The translations under genes and the position numbers were made by a program. The notes below the pieces were generated by a model that was given only the letters and a program-made list of their open reading frames with translations, did no database searches and was not told the origin of the DNA. 41,011 bases of DNA from Enterococcus phage fHoEfa03, in the sequence record PV296018.1. One strand, 5' to 3'. Within the stretch, counting starts at the first letter, position 1. Each line of letters begins with the position of its first letter. Positions 20,866-41,011 of this stretch are shown in pieces.

Positions 20866-21396
20866 CTATTTATATTTAAATGAATATCCTTTATGTGTTT
20901 TTTGTTTACCAGCTAAACATAAGGATATTGATGATACTGACAACTCAAGCTCGTTAGCGCATTCTGTCATTGATTTAAATTCATAAGTCTTTTTATTTGA
21001 TATACAAAATATACCTATATTACGGTTACCCTGATTTGAATACTGCTCTTTATAGGTAGCCCACCTTAAGTTTTCAACTCTGTTATCAAATCTATCCCTG
21101 TTTATATGGTCTACTGTAGGTTTGTTTTCTGGGTTTGGTATGAATGCTTCTGCTACTAAGCGGTGTAAATATTCAATACGCTTTACATTGTTATATAATG
21201 TTATTTTCTTGTAACCATTTGCTACCTTACCGCTTAGTTCTTTTAACTTTAATAACTGTCCTTTCCTATTTAACCTAGGTAAGGAAAAAACCCTACCTAG
21301 GGATGTTATTACATAGTTACCATTAATAACATATTCTTCGTTAGTCAATGTAATTTTTGACATTAAGTTTTCTATATCCAAGTTTTTCTCTTTCAT
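20866..21396 (-). CDS. Free-standing HNH homing endonuclease (paralog of 492-1001 and 29649-30182).
   Basis: HRLVAEAFIPNPENKPTVDHINRDRFDNRVENLRWATYKEQ core. The longest ORF (to 21435) overlaps the polymerase 3' end, so the true start is probably the internal Met (21396 or 21363). Confidence 0.75.
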   Translation of the reverse strand: MKEKNLDIENLMSKITLTNEEYVINGNYVITSLGRVFSLPRLNRKGQLLKLKELSGKVANGYKKITLYNNVKRIEYLHRLVAEAFIPNPENKPTVDHINRDRFDNRVENLRWATYKEQYSNQGNRNIGIFCISNKKTYEFKSMTECANELELSVSSISLCLAGKQKTHKGYSFKYK

Positions 21397-23632
21397 GATG
21401 TGCTTGTTCAACCCTTTCTTTGTAGTTTTCACCAAACCAAAGGACTAACGTGTCTTCTACCTGGTCAATATAGTATTGTTTGTCAATTTCATCAATGGTA
21501 ATACCTTCACCAATTGCTTCATTACTGATTGTGTAGTATTCTGGAGCGTTTGCCAATCCTTTTGTATATGAAATATTATCCTTAAATTCATCAGCTTCAA
21601 TATCTAATAATTGACCTTCTTTGACCTTAAACAATTCTACTGCATTAGTTTTGTCTTTTACTGCGAATACGCGGTTAACCTTTTGAGCATTGGTTTCATT
21701 ACCTTCAATGTCCCTTTTAATTGTTTTATCATAACTCCAGCCAGTTTTGGTAATAATTTGAAACTGTCTTACATCTTCACATTCTTCAATAAATTCTTTG
21801 TAGTCTTTACCAGCCACCAAATAGTTGATAAATGCATTTGAAACAACTGCTTTTGAAACTTTTAATCCACCAGTTAAACCAATAGCACCTTTAATTTTAA
21901 CCTTCCCATTTGGTTGTACTGCAATGTAGTTATTTACATCTTTTTGCCAAATTTCACGGAACATATCCTTATCTAATGTTAGCCCAATCTTGTTAGCAAA
22001 TTCATCTAATGCTTCATCAATAGCTTTATCATCTGCTTCACTGTTTGGAATATATGCGTGTGCGTCCGTATTTGATTGAATGAATTGTGCTTTACCTTTA
22101 ATTAATTCAAACATGTTTGTCATAATCAACTGACCTGTTGCACAAACCAAGAATTGGTTTCTTGGGTCATATAAACCATTAAACTGCGCACCACTGGCAC
22201 CAAACTTAGTGTTAAGCGGTAACTTGATACCGTTAATCATTACCCAAGTTGGTACCTTTACGCCTTTAATATCTGCTGTTTCTTCACCTGAATACTTAGC
22301 ATCCATGCGTTGTTTAAGTAAGTCACTATAGCGGTGAAGTTTATCTTTTGGAATGTTTCTTGATAGTAGGTTGAACTGAACCATTGTATTTGGATATAGT
22401 GAACCCCAGTCACGCATTGGGAATAATCCAATATGAATATAGCTAGGTACCGCACCGTGTACACCACCACTACCATAGACCATTTCATAACCATCTTCAG
22501 TAGTGTAGTTTAGTGACACGTTTAGTTTGCCTTTTTCGTTTAATTCAAATTCATGATTGAGATATGCGTCTGCAATCTCTTTTGTATTAATGTTTAATCG
22601 TTTATCTAACTCTAATGGGTCTGTCAAGTCTGGTCTAACTTCTTGTTTTGTTGCACCAAGTAACTTAGCTGTTAAGTTAGCATTGGTTTGTAATAAGTCT
22701 GTCTTATCCATGTCAAACATTAAAGCAATAGTTGCTTTAGCTAACAACATACTTATGTTTTGTTCAAAACGTTTTTCAGTTGCTAATACATCATTTTTAC
22801 AGTATGCAATGTTTTTCGCTTTTTCTTCCTCTGTCAATGGTCTATCCATATCAAAGTCTACTTCTGTTTCTTTAATGTTGATGCCTAAGAATGCTGAATG
22901 TTCTTTTAAGCTAAAACCTTTGTTATCTTGATATAGGTCCATACCAAAAAGTGGTGTTTTATGACTATCAAACATTTTGTAAACTAGACCTCTATTATCT
23001 GATTCAATAATTGCCTTAGACATCTGATAAGCATTTTTGCCTTGTAGATACCCACGCATTACATTGTTGTCATATGACGCATTATTATACCCAATAAACA
23101 TTGAATCACGGTATTCAAGGTAAAACTTGCGTAATTCGTCAAGGTTGTTATTAATGATAAACCATTCTTTGGTAAAGTAATCACGAAATACAAATAAACT
23201 GTCATGTTTAAAAATCTCAATATCAAATAATAAAATGGTTTGCTTTGTTAATGGTTCACTTGGTTTAAATGGTACAACATTACCACTTGAAATACTTCTG
23301 ATTGGTTTTACTGTAGCAAAACCATTACTGAACTTCAAATCAATCAATAAACGGTCACCAACTTCAACATTTTTCCATTTATCCCAGTCATATTTGCGAA
23401 ACTTCATGATATAGCTTGTAACGTCCCTACCATCTTCTAATGAACGCATTTTAACTACCTTCATTTCTTTTCCTTTTGCTGATAACTTTTTGGTAGATTC
23501 AATGACAACCACATCATGTTGACCAGCTCGCATAGGGTCAAGACTTCGTGAATTACCTTTTAGCTTACTGAATACTTCCAATAGTTTTTCAGCTAGTTTT
23601 GGTGCTTCTTTAAATTCTGCAATATTTTTCAT
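21341..23632 (-). CDS. Family B DNA polymerase.
   Basis: Exo I LLFDIEIF (DxE). Exo III-like YCKNDV. Motif A DWGSLYPNTM (DxxSLYPS). Motif B-like KFGASGAQFNGLY. Motif C-like SNTDAH. Confidence 0.8.
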   Translation of the reverse strand: MKNIAEFKEAPKLAEKLLEVFSKLKGNSRSLDPMRAGQHDVVVIESTKKLSAKGKEMKVVKMRSLEDGRDVTSYIMKFRKYDWDKWKNVEVGDRLLIDLKFSNGFATVKPIRSISSGNVVPFKPSEPLTKQTILLFDIEIFKHDSLFVFRDYFTKEWFIINNNLDELRKFYLEYRDSMFIGYNNASYDNNVMRGYLQGKNAYQMSKAIIESDNRGLVYKMFDSHKTPLFGMDLYQDNKGFSLKEHSAFLGINIKETEVDFDMDRPLTEEEKAKNIAYCKNDVLATEKRFEQNISMLLAKATIALMFDMDKTDLLQTNANLTAKLLGATKQEVRPDLTDPLELDKRLNINTKEIADAYLNHEFELNEKGKLNVSLNYTTEDGYEMVYGSGGVHGAVPSYIHIGLFPMRDWGSLYPNTMVQFNLLSRNIPKDKLHRYSDLLKQRMDAKYSGEETADIKGVKVPTWVMINGIKLPLNTKFGASGAQFNGLYDPRNQFLVCATGQLIMTNMFELIKGKAQFIQSNTDAHAYIPNSEADDKAIDEALDEFANKIGLTLDKDMFREIWQKDVNNYIAVQPNGKVKIKGAIGLTGGLKVSKAVVSNAFINYLVAGKDYKEFIEECEDVRQFQIITKTGWSYDKTIKRDIEGNETNAQKVNRVFAVKDKTNAVELFKVKEGQLLDIEADEFKDNISYTKGLANAPEYYTISNEAIGEGITIDEIDKQYYIDQVEDTLVLWFGENYKERVEQAHHEREKLGYRKLNVKNYID

Positions 23633-27589: not shown

Positions 27590-28072
27590 TTATAACCCTC
27601 TTTCTATAATCTTGTACAACTCATCCTCAAATATCTTATATACATGTATTCTGTTAGAAAAGAATTTCTTAGCTTTCCCAAAGTGATAGCTAGCATCATG
27701 CATATTATTAAATCTATATACCTTAAAATCTCTTTTATCCAATATGATTAGTGGTCTATGTCTACCAAGAGTTAGGTTATTATCCCAAGCATGTTTACAG
27801 TTTTCTTTAGCTGTAACCCACTCAAGATTGGGAACCCTGTTATTTGATTTATTAGCATCAATATGGTTTACTTGTGGTTTGTTTTCTGGATTTGGAATGA
27901 ATAGTTTAGCTACTATTCTGTGGACTTTTTCTGGGTGTGAGTTTACTGTAACTATGCGATAACCATCTTTATCTAGGTGACCCTTGTGTAATCCTTTTTG
28001 TTTCGTTATAACTAATCCTGATGGTGATACCTTTATATTATCATAGTCTACAAAATTATTGTTTTCTACCAT
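27590..28072 (-). CDS. Free-standing HNH homing endonuclease.
   Basis: HRIVAKLFIPNPENKPQVNHIDANKSNNRVPNLEWVTAKEN core, near-identical to the copy at 492-1001. Confidence 0.75.
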   Translation of the reverse strand: MVENNNFVDYDNIKVSPSGLVITKQKGLHKGHLDKDGYRIVTVNSHPEKVHRIVAKLFIPNPENKPQVNHIDANKSNNRVPNLEWVTAKENCKHAWDNNLTLGRHRPLIILDKRDFKVYRFNNMHDASYHFGKAKKFFSNRIHVYKIFEDELYKIIERGL

Positions 28073-28730: not shown

Positions 28731-28974
28731 TTGCATATTTTGCGATAAGTTGAAAAACTTCTTGCGCCGTTTCAATGTTTTCAAAACTAACAAATCCACT
28801 TGCTACATGTTGCATCATTACTGAATAGTTATAATTTGTACTATACATATCACCAAACCCATTTGGATTGTACTTTACATCAATAAGACAACCGTTTGGG
28901 AACAATTTTCTAAACATATGAGCGTTATTCATCTTTTGCCATTCTCCGTTCTTCTCGTTTTTTAACTGAATCAT
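28726..28974 (-). CDS. Hypothetical protein (82 aa).
   Basis: ORF only. Confidence 0.4.
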   Translation of the reverse strand: MIQLKNEKNGEWQKMNNAHMFRKLFPNGCLIDVKYNPNGFGDMYSTNYNYSVMMQHVASGFVSFENIETAQEVFQLIAKYAK

Positions 28975-29668
28975 ATGTGCGTTTCAGTTCTGTACTGTCA
29001 AGTGGTGGATTACATCCTATCTGGTTAGTATATTGCGCCCACACCCATACTTCTTCATGTTCTAAGCCTGTAGCAAACAATTTGCCAATCATTTGCGTTA
29101 TCCAGTTGTTTCGTCCTCCTTCATCACTTCCAGCGATAATATCACCTAACAGGTTTGCAGTCCATTTGCGTTCACGTTTTTTGTTTTGCTTTTGAATTGT
29201 TTTATCTGTAAAAATATCAAACCATTTCTCTGGTAGGTCTGCAATTGGTGAATTGTCAATCACTTCATATTTTACACCATCAATTGTTGAACCCCACCCT
29301 AAAACATATCTACCACTACACTGAAAGTCAACACCTTCAAGCTCCTTATGGTTTTGAATGAATTGCACATCATTATATTTTTCAGGTAGCTTGTAATACA
29401 TATGAAGTCCACCACTTGGTGTCATAACTGTTTTAGTGTCTGGTAATTCAATATCATACTTTTCGCAAAACTCTTTCAGGTTATCAGCACCACTAATACC
29501 ATTATGAGTGTCAATATCAATCACTACTACCCCATTTAATGAACCAGTTAGGTACCCCCAGTTACCACCTTCTTTTATCCATTCACGAACAACATTTTCA
29601 TTCTCTCCATTAAATGAACCTGCCACTAAAGGTGCTTTACCATTCTTTTTAATTCTCAATACTTTCAA
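28925..29668 (-). CDS. Primase-polymerase (PrimPol, bifunctional DNA primase/polymerase N-terminal-type) domain protein.
   Basis: VVIDIDTHNGISG places the DxD metal-binding motif in the PrimPol context. Confidence 0.55.
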   Translation of the reverse strand: MKVLRIKKNGKAPLVAGSFNGENENVVREWIKEGGNWGYLTGSLNGVVVIDIDTHNGISGADNLKEFCEKYDIELPDTKTVMTPSGGLHMYYKLPEKYNDVQFIQNHKELEGVDFQCSGRYVLGWGSTIDGVKYEVIDNSPIADLPEKWFDIFTDKTIQKQNKKRERKWTANLLGDIIAGSDEGGRNNWITQMIGKLFATGLEHEEVWVWAQYTNQIGCNPPLDSTELKRTYDSVKKREERRMAKDE

Positions 29669-30182
29669 ATTTAAAACCTCCTGCTGATTTGTTTATATAT
29701 TTATCCGAAATCACTTTACTTATTGTTCCTTCATCTATATTTAGTGTGTTACTTGCTTCTCGTATACTACTATAATATACTTCCTTACCTTCTTTGTCAA
29801 TAGATTTTATTTTCTTTTTTAAACCAGTTGCTTTTTTATTAACTTGTTGCTCTGCATATGTTGCCCACCTTAAGTTTTCAACTCTGTTATCAAATCTATC
29901 TCTGTTCACATGGTCTACTGTAGGCTTTTTTTCTGGGTTTGGTATGAATGCTTCTGCTACTAATCGGTGGACTGAATATGTTTTTGTATATCCGTTATTA
30001 TCACTAAGTCTTACACAATTATATTCAAACCCTCTTTTACCTCTTTTTTGATTTTTTAGTATAGTTTCTTTGGTTTCTAATAGACCAGTGTTACATCTAA
30101 CTATTCTTGCTTTTGACTTAATTCTACCAAAGTTTGATATTTTATATTTATTAAGATTATTCAGTTCTCTCCATTCTTCCAT
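29649..30182 (-). CDS. Free-standing HNH homing endonuclease.
   Basis: MEEWRELNNLNKYKISNFGRIKS N-terminus. HRLVAEAFIPNPEKKPTVDHVNRDRFDNRVENLRWATYAEQ core. Confidence 0.8.
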   Translation of the reverse strand: MEEWRELNNLNKYKISNFGRIKSKARIVRCNTGLLETKETILKNQKRGKRGFEYNCVRLSDNNGYTKTYSVHRLVAEAFIPNPEKKPTVDHVNRDRFDNRVENLRWATYAEQQVNKKATGLKKKIKSIDKEGKEVYYSSIREASNTLNIDEGTISKVISDKYINKSAGGFKFESIEN

Positions 30183-34292: not shown

Positions 34293-35879
34293 TTAAAAAA
34301 TATTATCTGTTTCAGAGGTATTGGTTTTCCATCTCACGTTAGTTGTACAACGTTGTACTCTTCCATCAACACGCTTAGTAATTACACTAAGAATAATGTT
34401 TTCTGATTGTGCTTTACGTTTCAATTCTGGAATGAACTTCTTGGCTGATACTTCCATTAGATTCTCTTCACGTAACATAGTGTTATATGCTTCTAATAAT
34501 TCTGTATTTGGAATTACATCATCAATATTGTTTGTAAATTCAAGTTCATTCAATTCAATAAAGTTAGCCATTGTGTCATTTCCTTGGATAAATGCGTCAC
34601 GTAATTTATTTGCATTATCACTGGTCCAGAACTGCCCTTTTGTTTCTCCATTTAGCCCAAACAATACATTTCTATATTGTTGCAGACAGTAGCTGATAAA
34701 CTCTGACTTTTCTTCATATGTGAAATTCTTTGAACGTTCTAGCCACATTGAATCTGTTGGGTTATCTCTTCCCATGGTCTTGTTAAATGGAAGCGTGATA
34801 ATACGGCGCAAGAAACCATGTGAAGTATCTGAAAAAGTAGGCATGTTATTAGTTGTGAAAATCATTAGTGCGTAGTTCGTAAATGTGAACTTGTTAATAC
34901 CTTTATACTCTGCACTCATTACGTCATTACCTGACAATGTTTTCAGTGTACCTGTTTGCTTAATGTGTTGCGCTGGCATATCAGTTTCAATATTTACCAT
35001 TTTACCAAATAATTGAGAGCTTGCGAATTTGTCATTATTACCTGATAAGCTGGCTAGTGTTGCATGACTTGTATTTGATTTACCTACTAGGTCCTCAATG
35101 AAGCTCATTACATGCGATTTACCGTTACTACCTTCACCAGTTGCAAATACCATTGCTTGTGGGTCTTGGTTGCGGTAGAAAATACGTCCAATCAATTGAA
35201 ATAGTGTTTTTGCGTCCTCTTCTAAAATATACTCAATCCATTCAGCAACGATATTGTGTTTAGGGTTCTCAATATAATCATATTCAATTCTTGTTGTTTG
35301 GTAGTCCTCTTTTACCGTTGGTTTTAATGTGTCCTCTTTAAAGCGATATGTGCCATTTTTAAATGCAATCTTATTTGGGTCCATTTTGTCATTAAATGGT
35401 AAGTTAGCACCAGAAGCAAGTGCATTTTTTGCCATTCTTTGAACTGCATTTCTAAATTGATTAGCAACCTTTGCATTTTCGGCGTAGTGTGGTGTATAGA
35501 CCATCATAAATTCATTGTAAAGCTTTTGCCATAAACGAGCTTCTAAGTTGTCCTCTGACACCTCATAAATTTTTGTGTCATGGTTGTAAACCACTGGTAA
35601 ACCAATTGTAGAACTTGCGTGTACTGGCAACACCTTAGCCATGTGAACTGCCAAGGCTTCTGCGTTTAAGCCATCATAACTTGGTTCTGGTCGTTGTGGC
35701 TCTGCATTCTTAGCCGCATCACCATTTTTAAAGTCAACTTCCCACTCTTTGTGGTCCTTTTCATAGTCCTTCAATGCTTTGATATATTGCTTACTTGGTG
35801 TCAAAGTCTTTTCAAGCGTGCTGATAAAGCTTAATTCAACTGGTTGGTCATATTCAACTTTTTGTAATTCATTTACCAT
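34293..35879 (-). CDS. D5-like / P4-family primase C-terminal SF3 helicase (NTPase).
   Basis: Walker A ATGEGSNGKSHV (GxGxNGKS is characteristic of phage/plasmid primase C-terminal D5-type helicases). 528 aa. Confidence 0.75.
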   Translation of the reverse strand: MVNELQKVEYDQPVELSFISTLEKTLTPSKQYIKALKDYEKDHKEWEVDFKNGDAAKNAEPQRPEPSYDGLNAEALAVHMAKVLPVHASSTIGLPVVYNHDTKIYEVSEDNLEARLWQKLYNEFMMVYTPHYAENAKVANQFRNAVQRMAKNALASGANLPFNDKMDPNKIAFKNGTYRFKEDTLKPTVKEDYQTTRIEYDYIENPKHNIVAEWIEYILEEDAKTLFQLIGRIFYRNQDPQAMVFATGEGSNGKSHVMSFIEDLVGKSNTSHATLASLSGNNDKFASSQLFGKMVNIETDMPAQHIKQTGTLKTLSGNDVMSAEYKGINKFTFTNYALMIFTTNNMPTFSDTSHGFLRRIITLPFNKTMGRDNPTDSMWLERSKNFTYEEKSEFISYCLQQYRNVLFGLNGETKGQFWTSDNANKLRDAFIQGNDTMANFIELNELEFTNNIDDVIPNTELLEAYNTMLREENLMEVSAKKFIPELKRKAQSENIILSVITKRVDGRVQRCTTNVRWKTNTSETDNIF

Positions 35880-35908
35880 TATTATTCCTCCTAATATCTT
35901 ATGACATT

Positions 35909-35937
35909 AATATACCATGTAAAAAAGAGAAAGTCAA
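35909..35937 (-). promoter_or_regulatory. Early promoter TTGACT-N17-TATATT with CATAAGATATTAGGAGG leader.
   Basis: Reverse complement of agtcaa at 35932-35937 and aatata at 35909-35914. Confidence 0.45.
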
Positions 35938-35973
35938 CTGTTTTATTTAACTTTCTCCCTTATAATAGCATAT

Positions 35974-36180
35974 TTAATTATATTTTTGTTTATCATATTG
36001 GTATATGCCAACCCAAAGCATTAATATTAATACTAACGCAACACCCACAATTAACCATTCTATAGTGTTTAATGATAGTAAAATGCACACAACTGCGATT
36101 CCTAACAATATGAAACAACCTAATAAAACAACGAATGCCACTGCTAAACATAATGCTTCTAATTTATTAATTCTACTCAT
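35974..36180 (-). CDS. Small membrane protein (68 aa, two TM helices).
   Basis: Highly hydrophobic: LCLAVAFVVLLGCFILLGIAVVCILL. Confidence 0.45.
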   Translation of the reverse strand: MSRINKLEALCLAVAFVVLLGCFILLGIAVVCILLSLNTIEWLIVGVALVLILMLWVGIYQYDKQKYN

Positions 36181-36395
36181 TTTGCTGCCTCCTCAAATTG
36201 TTGTTTTTGTGCTTTTGTTGCTTTTGTGTCACACATTGTAGCTTGCTTGTGTATCCATGCTTTAGAAACCATGTTTATTTCATTATCTAACAATGTGATA
36301 AAATAACCACGTGTGTCTATCTGGTCAATTCTGTAAATATTTAGACCATCAGTTGAAGCCCAAATTGAGCCAATAACCTTCACTGAATCACTCAT
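36177..36395 (-). CDS. Hypothetical protein (72 aa).
   Basis: ORF only. Confidence 0.4.
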   Translation of the reverse strand: MSDSVKVIGSIWASTDGLNIYRIDQIDTRGYFITLLDNEINMVSKAWIHKQATMCDTKATKAQKQQFEEAAK

Positions 36396-36609
36396 ATTTT
36401 CCCATCACCTCAATCAGGTAGTTATTCATTTCAAAATTATCACTTGGTATAAAGTCAATTGTTTGTTCGTGGTTCATCATCATAAAACTAATTTGATTGT
36501 TTGAAGTGTCAATTGCACATACACTAACTTCATCTTCAAAACTACCAATAATAAAGAAGTACCATGAATCATTTTCAAATTTCCAAAACGTACCTACATC
36601 TTTCTTCAT
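36388..36609 (-). CDS. Hypothetical protein (73 aa).
   Basis: ORF only. Confidence 0.4.
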   Translation of the reverse strand: MKKDVGTFWKFENDSWYFFIIGSFEDEVSVCAIDTSNNQISFMMMNHEQTIDFIPSDNFEMNNYLIEVMGKYE

Positions 36610-36623
36610 TACTATTCCTCCTA

Positions 36624-36779
36624 CTTAATCATAATATATAGAACAATTAACATTAACCAAATACCAGCCCAGCCAGCAGTTACATATGACATATAGATAA
36701 TAAATACAAACGCTAGTGGTAGTGCGATTCCTAATGTTACCAATAGTGCGAATGCGATTGCTTTTAATAATTTAATCAT
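36624..36779 (-). CDS. Hypothetical 51-aa membrane peptide. Its start overlaps the upstream stop (ATGA).
   Basis: MIKLLKAIAFALLVTLGIALPLAFVFIIYMSYVTAGWAGIWLMLIVLYIMIK. Below the ORF-track cutoff. Confidence 0.35.
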
Positions 36780-37027
36780 TTTGCGTCCTCCAATACATAT
36801 AATATTGAATCTAATGGAATGGTGATAAATGTGTCTTGCATTTCACCATCAATTTCAATTGCTTCTGGTTTTTCCAATTTCAATAACTTTTCATCATTTT
36901 CAACCGCTTGTTCATACATTACAAGAATTGGTTCTTCTGTGTATAAGCTGAATAGTTCATTATTTGTTAAACAAATATAATAGTTCGTTTTTACTGGCAT
37001 TCTTGTTCCTCCAATTTTATAATACAA
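36776..37027 (-). CDS. Hypothetical protein (~75-83 aa).
   Basis: Likely start at the internal Met (MPVKTNYY) behind GGAGGAACAAGA. Confidence 0.4.
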   Translation of the reverse strand: MYYKIGGTRMPVKTNYYICLTNNELFSLYTEEPILVMYEQAVENDEKLLKLEKPEAIEIDGEMQDTFITIPLDSILYVLEDAK

Positions 37028-37273
37028 TATAAACCATTTATACGCTTAGCTCTGCGTAACGCTTCATTATAGTGATATGCTTTAAGATATGCACGCTGTA
37101 CCTTGTTTTCTATATTTCCATATGTTACTTTAAATGTTTTTAGCTTACTCATCTTTATTGTACCTCCTAATCCTCAATATACTTGATAATGTTGTAAGTT
37201 CCCCAGATTCCAATTGTTACAAATACTAAACCAAATAGTGCCATTTTGTTTTCCTCCTTTATCTTATACACCT

Positions 37274-37302
37274 ACTATATCACATGGTATAGTAGGTGTC
37301 AA
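37274..37302 (-). promoter_or_regulatory. Early promoter TTGACA-N17-TATAGT with an embedded 11-bp palindrome (cacctactata / tatagtaggtg) and TATAAGATAAAGGAGG leader.
   Basis: Same architecture as 30425-30453. Confidence 0.55.
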
Positions 37303-37307
37303 GTGTT

Positions 37308-37919
37308 TTACTTAAATTCTTTTAAAATTTCTAGCGCTTCTTTTGCTTCATTTAGTTTCTGAATTTTATCACGCAATTTAACTCGTTGTCCTTCCATTCT
37401 TTCAATTTTATCAATAATGTTCATACGTTCCTTGTGTAGTAATTCAATTCTATCATTTAGTTGTTTTTCAATGTCCACTGTGATTGTTGCGGTTGGTTCT
37501 ACTTTTTTAAGTTCGTCTTTAGTAATGAGGTTTGTCCATTTGTGGTTACCTATTCTTACCGTTGTGCTATACACATCTGTAATTATTACTTTTTCACCTA
37601 CATTATAAAGTTCATCTTTTTCATTTCTTGCGTTTGATGTGTTACTAGTGATTTCTACTAAATCTCCTATTTTAAATTCTTGCATTGTTTCCTCCTCATT
37701 AACAATTTCAAATACTACTAGTCTATGGTTTCCGTTTAAACAGTCTAACATGTAATCTGTATATGCGTCATGTCCATGGTCGTCCTTAATTGATAAACTA
37801 TCATCTTTAGTTAGTTTTACTTCATACAATTTACCTACGGTCCACCAGATTATATTGCTTTTTGTGCAAATTAATTTTGTTCCTACTGTAATATCATTTT
37901 CAGTATACTTCATATGCAT
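37308..37919 (-). CDS. Hypothetical protein (203 aa) with a C-terminal coiled coil.
   Basis: ORF with a GGGAGGAAAATG RBS. Confidence 0.5.
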   Translation of the reverse strand: MHMKYTENDITVGTKLICTKSNIIWWTVGKLYEVKLTKDDSLSIKDDHGHDAYTDYMLDCLNGNHRLVVFEIVNEEETMQEFKIGDLVEITSNTSNARNEKDELYNVGEKVIITDVYSTTVRIGNHKWTNLITKDELKKVEPTATITVDIEKQLNDRIELLHKERMNIIDKIERMEGQRVKLRDKIQKLNEAKEALEILKEFK

Positions 37920-38127
37920 TTTCCTCCCAAATTAATAAGTCTAGTGTTTCAAATGCTTTTTTCATTACTCTAATACTGTCTAAATTATACCCATGATTTC
38001 CTAACAATGTCTGAACTTCACCAGCTGAACCATTTTCCCAACCGTATAAAATACCCTCGTTGTCCCAACCACCTATAATATCTCTAATCTGTTCAATTGT
38101 GAAATTTTCTTTAAATAGTTGTTTCAT
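37900..38127 (-). CDS. Hypothetical protein (75 aa).
   Basis: ORF with a GGAGGAACAG RBS. Confidence 0.45.
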   Translation of the reverse strand: MKQLFKENFTIEQIRDIIGGWDNEGILYGWENGSAGEVQTLLGNHGYNLDSIRVMKKAFETLDLLIWEENAYEVY

Positions 38128-38140
38128 TTAACTGTTCCTC

Positions 38141-38329
38141 CTATTTTTCCACTTTTTCAAAATAGTTTGGTTCGAATGTATAAGTAAAGCCCGCTAATCG
38201 TAATACTGTTTCAGAAGCCCATTCCACTGTAAACACTATTGTGTTTGGTTGTTCACCTTCAATTTTTCCTAATTCATCAAACCAAAAACTATCCGTGTAT
38301 TTCACCTTATCGCCTTTTTTGAATGTCAT
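38141..38329 (-). CDS. Hypothetical protein (62 aa).
   Basis: ORF with a GAGGAGGAAACA RBS. Confidence 0.45.
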   Translation of the reverse strand: MTFKKGDKVKYTDSFWFDELGKIEGEQPNTIVFTVEWASETVLRLAGFTYTFEPNYFEKVEK

Positions 38330-38343
38330 TTTGTTTCCTCCTC

Positions 38344-38739
38344 TTATCTTATGAAACCAGTATAGTCTAACTTAACTAGTTTGTCAAGCTTATTTGCCAA
38401 TTTTCTTTGTTCTTCGTTGTATGCTTCTACTGCGTCCTCCCTACGTTGCATATACAACTTAGCCACCTCATGGTTTAATGTTACGTTATGCTCATGTATT
38501 AGTTGTTCACACTTATTTATTCTGCGTTCCCAACGTTCGTTGCATTCTTTAATTTGCTTTTTAAGCTGCTTTAACTTAAACTGTTTAGCTTCATCATCTG
38601 TCATTTGGCGTTCAGTAATAATGTAATGTATACCGTCATAGACAGTATATTGAGACAGTGTTTCGTTATCTTCCATTTGGTACAAGTGTTCTTGTAATGC
38701 TACCTGTGTGTGAAATAAGTGTGCTTCACGTTTAATCAT
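38344..38739 (-). CDS. Hypothetical coiled-coil protein (131 aa).
   Basis: ORF with a GGAGGACTTAAAATG RBS. Confidence 0.5.
   Translation of the reverse strand: MIKREAHLFHTQVALQEHLYQMEDNETLSQYTVYDGIHYIITERQMTDDEAKQFKLKQLKKQIKECNERWERRINKCEQLIHEHNVTLNHEVAKLYMQRREDAVEAYNEEQRKLANKLDKLVKLDYTGFIR
38359..38387 (-). promoter_or_regulatory. Early promoter TTGACA-N17-TATACT with CATAAGATAAGAGGAGG leader. It is embedded in the 3' end of the upstream ORF.
   Basis: Reverse complement of tgtcaa at 38382-38387 and agtata at 38359-38364. Confidence 0.45.
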
Positions 38740-38927
38740 TTTAAGTCCTCCAATTGTTTTTCTAATTCTTCAATTCTACGTTCTCTTTTTGCCAGCTCGT
38801 TGATTGTCTTAAGTCGTTTATTAAACTCTATATCGTGCATATACTTCCAATACTTTACGTCAAGCTCTGTTTCTTTTAGCTCTCGTTTTAGAATTAAATA
38901 CTTACTTTTTAGTGTTAGTCCTAACAT
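38736..38927 (-). CDS. Hypothetical protein (63 aa, charged coiled-coil).
   Basis: ORF with an AGGAGGAACAATAATG RBS. Confidence 0.45.
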   Translation of the reverse strand: MLGLTLKSKYLILKRELKETELDVKYWKYMHDIEFNKRLKTINELAKRERRIEELEKQLEDLK

Positions 38928-38939
38928 TATTGTTCCTCC

Positions 38940-39383
38940 TTATAATTGTTTACTATAGCAACCGTTTATTTTAACACCAATGAAACCATATTGTGGTTCT
39001 CCGTTTACTCGTAAGCGTGTTCTTTCTAAAATATTTCCACCGTCTTTTCCTACCTCTTTAAATAGTCTCATAAATAATTCATATGAAATATCTGAGTTGT
39101 TCCAATCGTTGAAGTCATCACGCAACATTTTACTGCTCGTAAATACTGGTTCATGTTCACTGTAGTATACTTTTCTTGCTGTACACCATTGTTTGACACG
39201 TTCTTTCATATGTCTGTTAAACTCTGGTGCTTTTCGCTCTTGTAACACCTCATACTCTGTAATAATGTAATGCCACTCACCTTGAATAGTGTGTGAGATA
39301 ATAGTTGTTTCTTCACCTAATGATTCAATGTATTCTGTTACGTTGTTCATTCCACAAAATTCTTTGATTGTCTTTTTCTTCAT
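38940..39383 (-). CDS. First early gene product, hypothetical (147 aa).
   Basis: ORF with an ACGAGGAGGAAATATTATG RBS. Lies immediately downstream of the early promoter and the iteron array. Confidence 0.5.
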   Translation of the reverse strand: MKKKTIKEFCGMNNVTEYIESLGEETTIISHTIQGEWHYIITEYEVLQERKAPEFNRHMKERVKQWCTARKVYYSEHEPVFTSSKMLRDDFNDWNNSDISYELFMRLFKEVGKDGGNILERTRLRVNGEPQYGFIGVKINGCYSKQL

Positions 39384-39430
39384 AATATTTCCTCCTCGTT
39401 TGTTTATAATTGTTGTGGTTTACATTTATT

Positions 39431-39459
39431 ATACTAAACCATGTTTGGTAATTTGTCAA
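39431..39459 (-). promoter_or_regulatory. Leftward early promoter: TTGACA at rc 39454-39459, -10 TAGTAT at 17-nt spacing (or TATAAT at 20-nt).
   Basis: Reverse complement reads aactgTTGACAaattaccaaacatggttTAGTATAATaaatg. Confidence 0.5.
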
Positions 39460-39480
39460 CAGTTTTGTTTAAATTTATTG

Positions 39481-39890
39481 AAATTTGTTTAATGTAACGC
39501 TTTGTAACACTTATTGTAACGCTTTGTAACGTTTAAGTGTTACGAAAAAAACCTATATAAACATTGATATATCAACGTTTCAAACCAAGTGTAACACTTG
39601 TAACGCTTGTAACGCTTTTTTTCAAGTTCTATACCCCACACCTATATACTATATTATTTTATTAATTATATTTCTATAGAGTTGTTTTAAAGCGTTACAA
39701 GTGTTACACTTATAAGATAACATAGTATAAAGATTGGTTTATCAACGTTTATAGGTGTAACACTTAGACCAACATGGTTATGTATAAGCGTTACATAAGT
39801 GTTACACTTATTGGTTTCTACAAGCTGTATCAATTGATATCACTATGTTTTAGTTGAAAATACTAAGTGTTACAAAGCGTTACACTTCAA
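39481..39890. repeat. Iteron array: 8-9 copies of GTAACGC(TT) / (AA)GTGTTACAC motifs in both orientations, two copies of TTTATCAACGTTT, and a TCAATTGATATCA palindrome. Candidate origin of replication and/or operator array.
   Basis: Units include tgtaacgctttgtaacac, ttgtaacgctttgtaacg, aagtgtaacacttgtaacgcttgtaacgc, aagcgttacaagtgttacactt, aggtgtaacactt, aagcgttacataagtgttacactt and taagtgttacaaagcgttacactt. Non-coding, AT-rich flanks. Confidence 0.6.
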
Positions 39891-39987
39891 GTTAAACAAG
39901 AGTAAAAGTACAACAATGGTTTGTTATTTAATAAAAATAATAGATTAAAATTAATGATTAATCTATTCCCTAAAGCACAAATAAGTA

Positions 39988-39996
39988 TGCTATAAT
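39988..39996 (+). promoter_or_regulatory. Extended -10 promoter TGcTATAAT for the rightward right-end module.
   Basis: ataagtatgctataatatag. Confidence 0.45.
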
Positions 39997-40045
39997 ATAG
40001 AAGTAAAGTAAAAACAAATAGGAGGAAACAATTATTAATAAAGGA

Positions 40046-40237
40046 ATGCAATTAGTAGTAGCACTAATCATCTTAGTATTTACAGTAGGAATGGCAGGAC
40101 TAATGTATGTGTATCTACCCTATGTATTGTGGACATCAGGTAACACTGGTTTAGCTATTGTCTATATCTTATGGAATGTATTTGGACGTATGCTACTAAC
40201 AGGTATGAAGTCCACACTAGAGGGCTACAACAAATAA
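40046..40237 (+). CDS. Small membrane protein (63 aa, two TM helices).
   Basis: LVVALIILVFTVGMAGLMYVYL and LAIVYILWNVF. Confidence 0.45.
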   Translation: MQLVVALIILVFTVGMAGLMYVYLPYVLWTSGNTGLAIVYILWNVFGRMLLTGMKSTLEGYNK

Positions 40238-40319
40238 GTACCACCATATACAATATAGAATGGAGGGTATAGTTTAATACTGTACCCTTGACAACACAAC
40301 ATAGAGGAGGGTATACTAT

Positions 40320-40523
40320 ATGAACATGGAGGGCATGACAGACAAGCAACTACTATCTCATACTAAGTTAGAGTTAGTATCATACATCAGACAGTTAGAG
40401 CAAGCAATGGTTACCAACACATCAGACACAACAGAACAACCAACAACAGAACCAACAACCAAAGCTAAAGTATCTTATGACATCTTTAATAGTAATACTA
40501 ACAAAGATATGTGGGGCTTCTAA
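40320..40523 (+). CDS. Hypothetical protein (67 aa) with a Thr/Pro/Glu-rich linker.
   Basis: ORF with a GGAGGGTATACTATATG RBS. A/C-rich codon usage unlike the rest of the genome. Confidence 0.45.
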   Translation: MNMEGMTDKQLLSHTKLELVSYIRQLEQAMVTNTSDTTEQPTTEPTTKAKVSYDIFNSNTNKDMWGF

Positions 40524-40894
40524 TGCCTAAGCGACGGTGTAAGGTTGCACACTGCAGGGAGTATGTAGATATACCTGAAGTGTACTGTGAACAACACAGA
40601 GGACAACAAGCAAAGACATACAACAAGCAAGTAAGACATTCACCAGATAACAAGAAGTATGCGGACTTCTATGCATCAACACAGTGGCGAAACGTTAGAG
40701 CAAGAAAGCTATCAATGAATCCAATGTGTGAAGTATGTAATGCAAGCATAGCAACCATAGTGCATCATAGGCAAGAGGTACGGACCGCAATGGGTTGGGA
40801 ACATAGGTTAGATATAGATAATCTAGAAAGTATCTGTCAAGAGTGTCACAACAAAGAAGAACATTCAGCCAGCTTCCGCCACCGCAAGGGGTGA
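40511..40894 (+). CDS. Packaging-associated HNH endonuclease (zinc-finger HNH of the type paired with terS/terL in cos phages).
   Basis: Cys pairs CKVAHC / CEQH and CEVC...CQECH with HH (IVHH). ~127 aa. Lies at the genome right end adjacent to the putative cos. Confidence 0.7.
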   Translation: MGLLMPKRRCKVAHCREYVDIPEVYCEQHRGQQAKTYNKQVRHSPDNKKYADFYASTQWRNVRARKLSMNPMCEVCNASIATIVHHRQEVRTAMGWEHRLDIDNLESICQECHNKEEHSASFRHRKG

Positions 40895-40914
40895 TTGTAG
40901 GCAGGGCTATCATA

Positions 40915-41011
40915 TTTTAAAAAGTGGGAGGGAGTACCAAAATAAAATGGGAGGGAGAGCTAAATTTTTTAGACCCCCCCTCGATTTTTTGGTGGAACTA
41001 ATTCATCACCG
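40915..41011. repeat. Right-end cos-proximal sequence: direct repeat TGGGAGGGAG x2 (40915-40924, 40938-40947) and G/C-rich GACCCCCCCTCG.
   Basis: Read directly. Non-coding tail after the HNH gene. Local GC is unusually high for this genome. Confidence 0.35.

Follow-up and report, generated by a model that had tools for sequence, protein, structure and literature searches.

In the complete genome of the virulent Enterococcus faecalis siphophage fHoEfa03 (genus Efquatrovirus; 41,011 bases, all of which were analysed and are called the window in the following), an array of 15 short repeats is a putative phage replication origin of the SaPI type, a reading to which the computational evidence lends a probability of roughly 0.75. 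The best candidate for the protein that binds the array is the SF3 helicase encoded at 34293-35879, as judged from its relation to the repeats across phages. An earlier note on this DNA had offered a choice between an origin of replication and an operator array, and the former is supported by the opposed iterons that surround an unstable duplex, by the likeness of the SF3 helicase to the SaPI Reps and by the co-variation of the iterons with one domain of this helicase in about 100 related phages. The annotation thus obtained covers the largest non-coding region in a group of phages that is widely isolated for E. faecalis therapy, and a likely initiator can now be named.

The repeat array and its setting

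The genome is organized in two divergent arms. The leftward arm (39383 to 20866) contains the early and replication genes, including that of a SNF2-type helicase, and the rightward arm extends from 40046 through the genome ends to about 20.5 kb with the HNH, terminase, structural and lysis genes. The array is found inside the 662-bp divergent intergenic region that separates them (39384-40045), about 1.1 kb from the right genome end and upstream of the HNH and terminase genes, in a segment (38900-41011) that shares 94-98% identity with many E. faecalis Efquatrovirus siphophages (e.g. SFQ01, AL3, LY0322 and LM99). The cumulative GC skew reaches its minimum at 39-40 kb, which is not independent evidence of an origin because it coincides with the switch of transcription direction. 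Three HNH_3/NUMOD homing-endonuclease genes are dispersed in the replication arm (20866-21435, 27590-28072 and 29649-30182), a fourth HNH gene (40511-40894) adjoins cos, and the presence of HNH genes differs among relatives. A search of the window against Rfam returned no known RNA family. The parts of the array and the promoters at its sides are as follows.

39431-39459, minus strand: leftward early promoter-like site TTGACA-17-TAGTAT, kept in all relatives, outside the iterons
39493-39544: outer left iteron cluster, units 1-4 on the plus strand and unit 5 inverted
39556-39580: imperfect palindrome AAACATTGATA-TATCAACGTTT, which includes the TATCAACGTTT box kept across all iteron types
39590-39617, plus strand: inner left iteron cluster, units 6-8, 9 bp apart and directed at the centre
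39618-39689: AT-rich centre of 72 bp, putative DNA-unwinding element (79% AT; 90% AT in 39644-39683)
39690-39708, minus strand: inner right iteron cluster, units 9-10, opposed to units 6-8
39726-39765, plus strand: conserved box TTGGTTTATCAACGTTTATAGG, directly followed by iteron unit 11 (39756-39765)
39786-39806, minus strand: iteron units 12-13
39828-39842: palindrome TATCAATTGATA (39828-39839) overlapping palindrome TGATATCA (39835-39842), with a TATCAA half-site common to the conserved box
39865-39884, minus strand: outer right iteron cluster, units 14-15
39988-39996, plus strand: rightward extended -10 element TGcTATAAT, kept in all relatives, outside the iterons

A single 10-bp unit, TGTAACRCTT, accounts for the array, with 15 copies in 39493-39884, 13 of them exact and two with one mismatch. 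The paired motifs that had been listed in the earlier note, GTAACGC(TT) and AAGTGTTACAC, are both present, but they are not separate elements, being the R=G and R=A variants of this unit on opposite strands. Elsewhere in the 41,011-base genome no exact TGTAACRCTT is found, each of the 17 other matches having one mismatch. The array is confirmed as real, and its repeats are far above chance: 26 copies of the core GTAACRC were counted in the window, where 9.4 +/- 3.0 would be expected and none of 100 shuffles gave as many, and 14 of the 26 fall in 39494-39883.

Units start at 39493, 39503, 39515, 39525, 39590, 39599, 39608 and 39756 on the plus strand and at 39535, 39690, 39699, 39786, 39797, 39865 and 39875 on the minus strand, with a start-to-start spacing of 9-12 bp between adjacent units of a cluster. 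With two exceptions, the units of the left half point rightward and those of the right half leftward, so that two opposed sets are formed. Units 1-5, in the outer left cluster, read TGTAACGCTT, TGTAACACTT, TGTAACGCTT, TGTAACGTTT and, on the minus strand, CGTAACACTT. The symmetry is exact over two stretches, namely a perfect 22-bp inverted repeat, part of which is the inner left cluster and whose partner is 39690-39711, and a perfect 21-bp inverted repeat between 39493-39513 and the outer right cluster (39865-39884). Among the 50-bp duplexes of the genome, 39642-39691, at the AT-rich centre, ranks second in instability (dG -47.4, the mean being -62.0 +/- 3.8); the least stable one, 1485-1534, lies between terS and terL. 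As for the promoters, the array does lie between the two divergent ones, as had been described, but it overlaps neither, since it starts 34 bp from the -35 hexamer of the leftward promoter and, at its other end, leaves about 100 bp to the rightward -10 element.

A second kind of element is interspersed with the iterons. The 11-mer core TATCAACGTTT occurs exactly at 39570 and at 39740, with an inverted copy bearing one mismatch at 39559-39569; the two copies formerly reported for the 13-mer TTTATCAACGTTT reduce to this core, the 13-mer itself being present once only, at 39738-39750. Its resemblance to a DnaA box, at 7 of 9 positions, had also been pointed out, but the window contains 174 matches to TTATCCACA with up to two mismatches where 190 would be expected, i.e. 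chance level, and with at most one mismatch none lies inside the array. An origin dependent on DnaA is thus not supported, DnaA boxes not being clustered above chance. The TATCAATTGATA palindrome is present, as had been described. The TATCAACGTTT box and the palindromes with the TATCAA half-site (39556-39580, 39726-39750 and 39828-39842) are invariant across phages with differing iterons; in relatives the box TTGGTTTATCAACGTTTATAGG is retained while the adjoining unit is exchanged in place, from GTGTAACACTT to GTGTTCTTCATT. The invariance of the TATCAACGTTT box in spite of differing iterons points to a second binding factor common to all relatives, and these boxes are therefore probably the sites of such a putative factor.

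Array types in related phages and the helicase tail

A search in related phages had been suggested as a check. Of about 105 related records, 16 match the array over its full length and the remaining ones match its flanks only. When homologous intergenic regions were read, some phages were found to share the array and others to have different units at the same site, with no loss of the promoters at the flanks or of the box TTGGTTTATCAACGTTTATAGG. The types of unit read, with the phages or loci in which they are found, are:

TGTAACRCTT: the window, AL3-like phages, EFRM31, G01 and Ef6.4
GTTATGCTT (GTTATGC type): IME_EF3 and EnP
RAGAACA (GAAC type): LM99, SHEF2, SHEF5, Sigurd, EfaCPT1 and others
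GTGGAACA: L028 and L041
GTGGTCA: L039

In every array type, two opposed sets of units are arranged about an AT-rich centre. When the homologous arrays of alleles A and A' are compared, all 12 of 12 iterons are found to be switched, from GTAAC to GTTAT or GTTAC, and the core columns, 65 of the 319 aligned, take 20 of the 33 substitutions specific to a lineage (Fisher p = 8e-8); between the closest allele pair, position 3 of each iteron core is flipped.

A tblastn screen of the 39 open reading frames of the leftward arm against 17 typed loci picked out one gene, that of the 528-aa protein at 34293-35879, which most records annotate merely as 'DNA primase'. The genes that enter the argument are:

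34293-35879, minus strand: SF3 helicase of 528 aa with D5_N and DUF5906 domains (Pfam), putative self-loading initiator
34296-34574, minus strand: C-terminal winged-helix-like domain of the helicase (aa 436-528), candidate allelic specificity module that co-varies with the iterons
28925-29668, minus strand: primase with Prim-Pol and PriCT_1 domains (Pfam), presumed priming partner
21341-23632, minus strand: DNA polymerase, presumed replicase, so named after the annotation of the homologous AL3 gp24, with no Pfam match in the window

The variable positions of the helicase cluster in its last ~90 residues and are sorted by array type: residues 1-435 are 98.6-98.9% identical across alleles, and residues 436-528 are identical at 86% or 59%. 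Across the GenBank phages, the 20 records in which the C-terminal 100 aa of the helicase are at least 99% identical to those of the window are the very ones that have the GTAAC array, joined by G01, in which they are 95% identical. The group with 86-87% identity over the C-terminal part (IME_EF3 and EnP) has GTTATGC units, and the group with about 61% identity has GAAC-type units in 17 of the 17 loci inspected. In the closest allele pair, the C-terminal domain differs by 13 substitutions (14%), four of which are in the first wing strand.

A base-by-base scan for co-segregation, in which the window was compared with seven whole genomes, gave four segments: the edge of the array, the helicase C-terminal domain, the cos-proximal 80-206 and the 3' end of terS (1340-1464). 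The last two fail to track the array type in the wider collection and were discarded; the former of them non-coding, they are mosaic alleles common to overlapping subsets of phages, independent of the origin type. Beyond the array edge, the helicase C-terminal domain alone co-segregates with the array type, across the 4.9 kb of mosaic DNA that lie between the two (34574 to 39493). Such co-variation in silico is strong and predicts that the helicase binds its own iterons specifically, although, because the phages sampled are phylogenetically related, it amounts to few independent switches of specificity (about five types).

The three small early proteins that had been put forward as binders of the array (38940-39383, 38344-38739 and 37308-37919) are absent or divergent in phages with an identical array, and they were set aside as mosaic accessory genes.

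With regard to its structure, the helicase has a single sequence match in the PDB, 7OLA (phmmer, E 6e-15), which is the SaPI5 primase-helicase PriRep5. The same entry is the best Foldseek match (E 1.6e-21) of its AlphaFold2 model (pLDDT 85.5), with an alignment of 472-500 columns for those 7OLA chains in which the C-terminal domain is present, longer than for the chains that lack it. In the full model, the C-terminal topology is H-H-beta-beta-H-H-beta hairpin (aa 421-517, pLDDT 80-91). When this domain is modelled alone (pLDDT 75), the top matches are the winged helices of RFX, PadR and ORC/Cdc6, at weak E values of 1e-3 to 0.1, and the assignment of a winged helix from the isolated domain is thus made with modest confidence. 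A conserved acidic-NIF tail, E(T/S)xNIF (34296-34316, aa 522-528), closes all full-length homologues irrespective of the C-terminal allele; the model shows it as disordered (pLDDT below 50), and it may be a partner-docking motif.

A code that relates residues to bases was also sought. The putative recognition helix, as placed by the winged-helix topology, does not predict the type of unit; indeed, P0002 has a recognition helix nearly as in the window, yet its repeats are of the GTGGTCA type, and no simple code of this kind was found. It seems rather likely that at least five classes of origin specificity exist in Efquatrovirus, in each of which the iterons and the winged-helix tail of ~90 residues have been switched together. 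These classes (TGTAACRCTT, GTTATGCTT, RAGAACA, GTGGAACA and GTGGTCA) may be switched jointly across 4.9 kb of freely recombining mosaic genes. Neither the iteron classes nor their match to the helicase tail are described in the literature searched.

Comparison with known origins and the proposed mechanism

The Reps of SaPIs are self-loading helicase initiators, which bind iterons through a C-terminal winged helix (PMC9371898). The iterons, of 5-6 nt and 6-12 in number, flank an AT-rich region, at least two per side and in opposite directions, the origin being found directly downstream of the rep gene; every element has a distinct origin, to which the Rep of that element binds (PMC9371898). The phage helicase shares its family and fold with SaPI Rep/PriRep (PDB 7OLA and 7PDS), 7OLA being the best match in both sequence and structure, and it has a predicted C-terminal winged-helix domain; moreover, units 6-8 on the plus strand face units 9-10 on the minus strand over the AT-rich centre, and the outer sets are opposed too. 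The differences concern the units, which are 10 bp long and 15 in number in the phage, the presence of the conserved TATCAACGTTT boxes as an extra element, the separation of the helicase from the Prim-Pol primase, and the host element, a virulent siphophage here and a satellite in the case of the SaPIs. Furthermore, unlike the SaPI origin, the array is not adjacent to the gene of its presumed initiator, but lies 3.6 kb from the start of the helicase gene and upstream of the whole early operon. In the distant relative L041 (6283-8355; 58% identity of the helicase), the gene directly beside the array is that of the helicase, upstream of the array and not downstream, an arrangement nearer to the adjacency of rep and ori in the SaPIs.

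Joint change of an origin and its initiator has parallels in other phages. In the lambdoid phages, the iterons of ori and the DNA-binding domain of the initiator, the O protein, change jointly between related phages, and in the satellite phage P4 the alpha protein is a primase-helicase with a C-terminal winged helix that binds the origin, where ori and crr iterons are found. The iterons of lambda are placed inside the O gene, so that the pair is physically linked, and O is not a helicase but recruits the host DnaB through P. In the Efquatrovirus case, on the other hand, one protein would be both initiator and helicase, and 4.9 kb with mosaic genes separate the two partners that co-vary.

Closer to the window, a SaPI5-like origin has been proposed in silico, in one sentence and one figure, for the Efquatrovirus phage Abitsa (41,581 bp), with seven 10-bp iterons around an AT-rich region and a PriRep5-like helicase as the initiator (Viruses 2026, PMC13517437). 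The genus, the locus near one genome end and the idea of the origin are the same; the phage is a different one, and the seven 10-bp repeats reported for it compare with the 15 units of the window (PMC13517437). The text of that proposal makes no mention of iteron types or of co-variation of the helicase C terminus, and in the literature searched it is the only paper found to mention iterons in an Enterococcus phage (PMC13517437). Since the Abitsa origin was already proposed in 2026, the origin reading given here belongs to a kind already put forward for the genus.

How such an origin would be fired can be outlined by taking these comparisons together, and in the following sequence of events we infer binding, self-loading, melting, priming by the Prim-Pol enzyme and origin activity. 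The SF3 helicase would read the TGTAACRCTT iterons via its C-terminal winged-helix domain and would assemble on the two opposed sets of iterons; it would then melt the AT-rich centre (39618-39689) and load itself onto the DNA, where the Prim-Pol primase and the phage DNA polymerase would begin bidirectional replication. Once bound, the helicase may also act secondarily on the divergent promoters. The natural series of iteron/winged-helix alleles (A, A' and B) provides a system in which the way SF3 self-loading helicases read their origins can be studied. If the reading of at least five jointly switched classes is true, a natural specificity code for SF3 self-loading initiators that lends itself to experiment would be at hand, and selection for private origins in virulent phages would be implied, e.g. 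against cross-use in co-infection or hijacking by satellites. The scheme for the origin predicts that recombinant or cocktail phages in which a helicase tail is mixed with a non-cognate array would not replicate.

Other readings of the array and related observations

The position of the array, exactly between two conserved divergent promoters, would also suit a set of operators, at which an early regulator binds the repeats and switches the early (leftward) and late or packaging (rightward) promoters. The early operon does encode a small protein of a PHROG 'transcriptional regulator' family (36388-36609, phrog_13841), and plasmid initiators bound at iterons often autoregulate transcription too. 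No unit, however, overlaps a -35 or a -10 element, the nearest ones being at the distances given above, phages whose arrays are identical differ in their mosaic first early genes, and the genome-wide scan found no other gene that co-segregates with the array. When the phage collection was searched by tblastn with the phrog_13841 regulator, the only annotated one, its allele did not follow the array type and it was rejected as the binder: alleles at least 90% identical are also found in the GAAC phages Sigurd, SHEF5 and LM99 and in EnP, which is of the GTTATGC type; KEN02, Ef6.1, SAM-E.f12 and EF-M80 have the allele without a GTAAC array or a matching helicase allele; and IME_EF3 shares the GTTATGC array of EnP, yet its phrog_13841 allele is 39% identical. 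The operator reading, the second of those offered in the earlier note, is therefore an unlikely one. A packaging or partition site, such as a recognition array of the terminase small subunit near cos, is very improbable: the array is near the right end and upstream of the HNH and terminase genes, but the terS segment and the cos-proximal one do not follow its type in the wider collection, and opposed sets about an AT-rich centre are typical of an origin and not of cosB.

It may be asked, finally, whether the array is bound by some other protein, of the host or of the phage, the match with the helicase tail being the result of hitch-hiking or of an indirect co-adaptation between proteins. The failure of the inferred recognition helix to predict the unit type would agree with this, and so would the existence of TGTAACRCTT arrays in unrelated elements that have no homologue of the helicase in the surrounding 8-9 kb. 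A host factor, however, cannot account for five unit types in phages of one host species; the array and the helicase tail are the only pair to co-segregate, despite the mosaic DNA between them; and the change of all 12 iterons goes together with the 13 substitutions in the tail, including those of the first wing strand. Another binder is thus doubtful, about as much so as a set of operators, and the origin bound by its own SF3 helicase is the reading preferred here.

The arrays in unrelated elements consist of TGTAACRCTT / AAGYGTTACA units, often with 9-bp spacing, and were found in a Pedosphaera MAG (L049, 3632-4119), beside an integrase in a Nitrososphaeria MAG (L047, 2381-2486 and 5080-5107), in Pectobacterium carotovorum (L044, 1449-1653), where the array is upstream of an HTH_3/Peptidase_M78 gene, and in an unrelated viral contig (L053, 138-470). 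In those of Pedosphaera and of the viral contig, a central spacer lies between opposed sets of units. None of the four has a homologue of the helicase within 8-9 kb, and their likeness is regarded as coincidental, the unit being short, or else is left unexplained. When chromosomal satellites and plasmids with the same iterons were looked for in one genome per species, a weak test with its single E. faecalis genome, no Enterococcus match was obtained.

Some of the related arrays contain further elements. A small hairpin-like element, CCCTTGGGAGAGTAAGG or CCTTAGAGCCACAAGGG, is conserved in arrays of the EFRM31, IME_EF3 and GAAC types (in L005, L029 and L030, e.g. at ~225-245 of L029, and at ~150-175 of L001) and is not seen in the array of the window. 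In the SANTOR1-type arrays, present in SANTOR1 (L037, 35670-36842), Ec-ZZ2 (L012) and AL2 (L024), the GAAC-type iterons are accompanied by eight copies of a second repeat, AAAAAGTGTAGACA. A Pfam search with SANTOR1 gp57 (181 aa), encoded by the first early gene beside the array, and with the conserved small early proteins gave no match. This protein is the sole open reading frame at least 94% identical in all three phages with AAAAAGTGTAGACA arrays, and it is absent from 15 other genomes and loci; AAAAAGTGTAGACA and SANTOR1 gp57 look like a second pair of repeat and protein.
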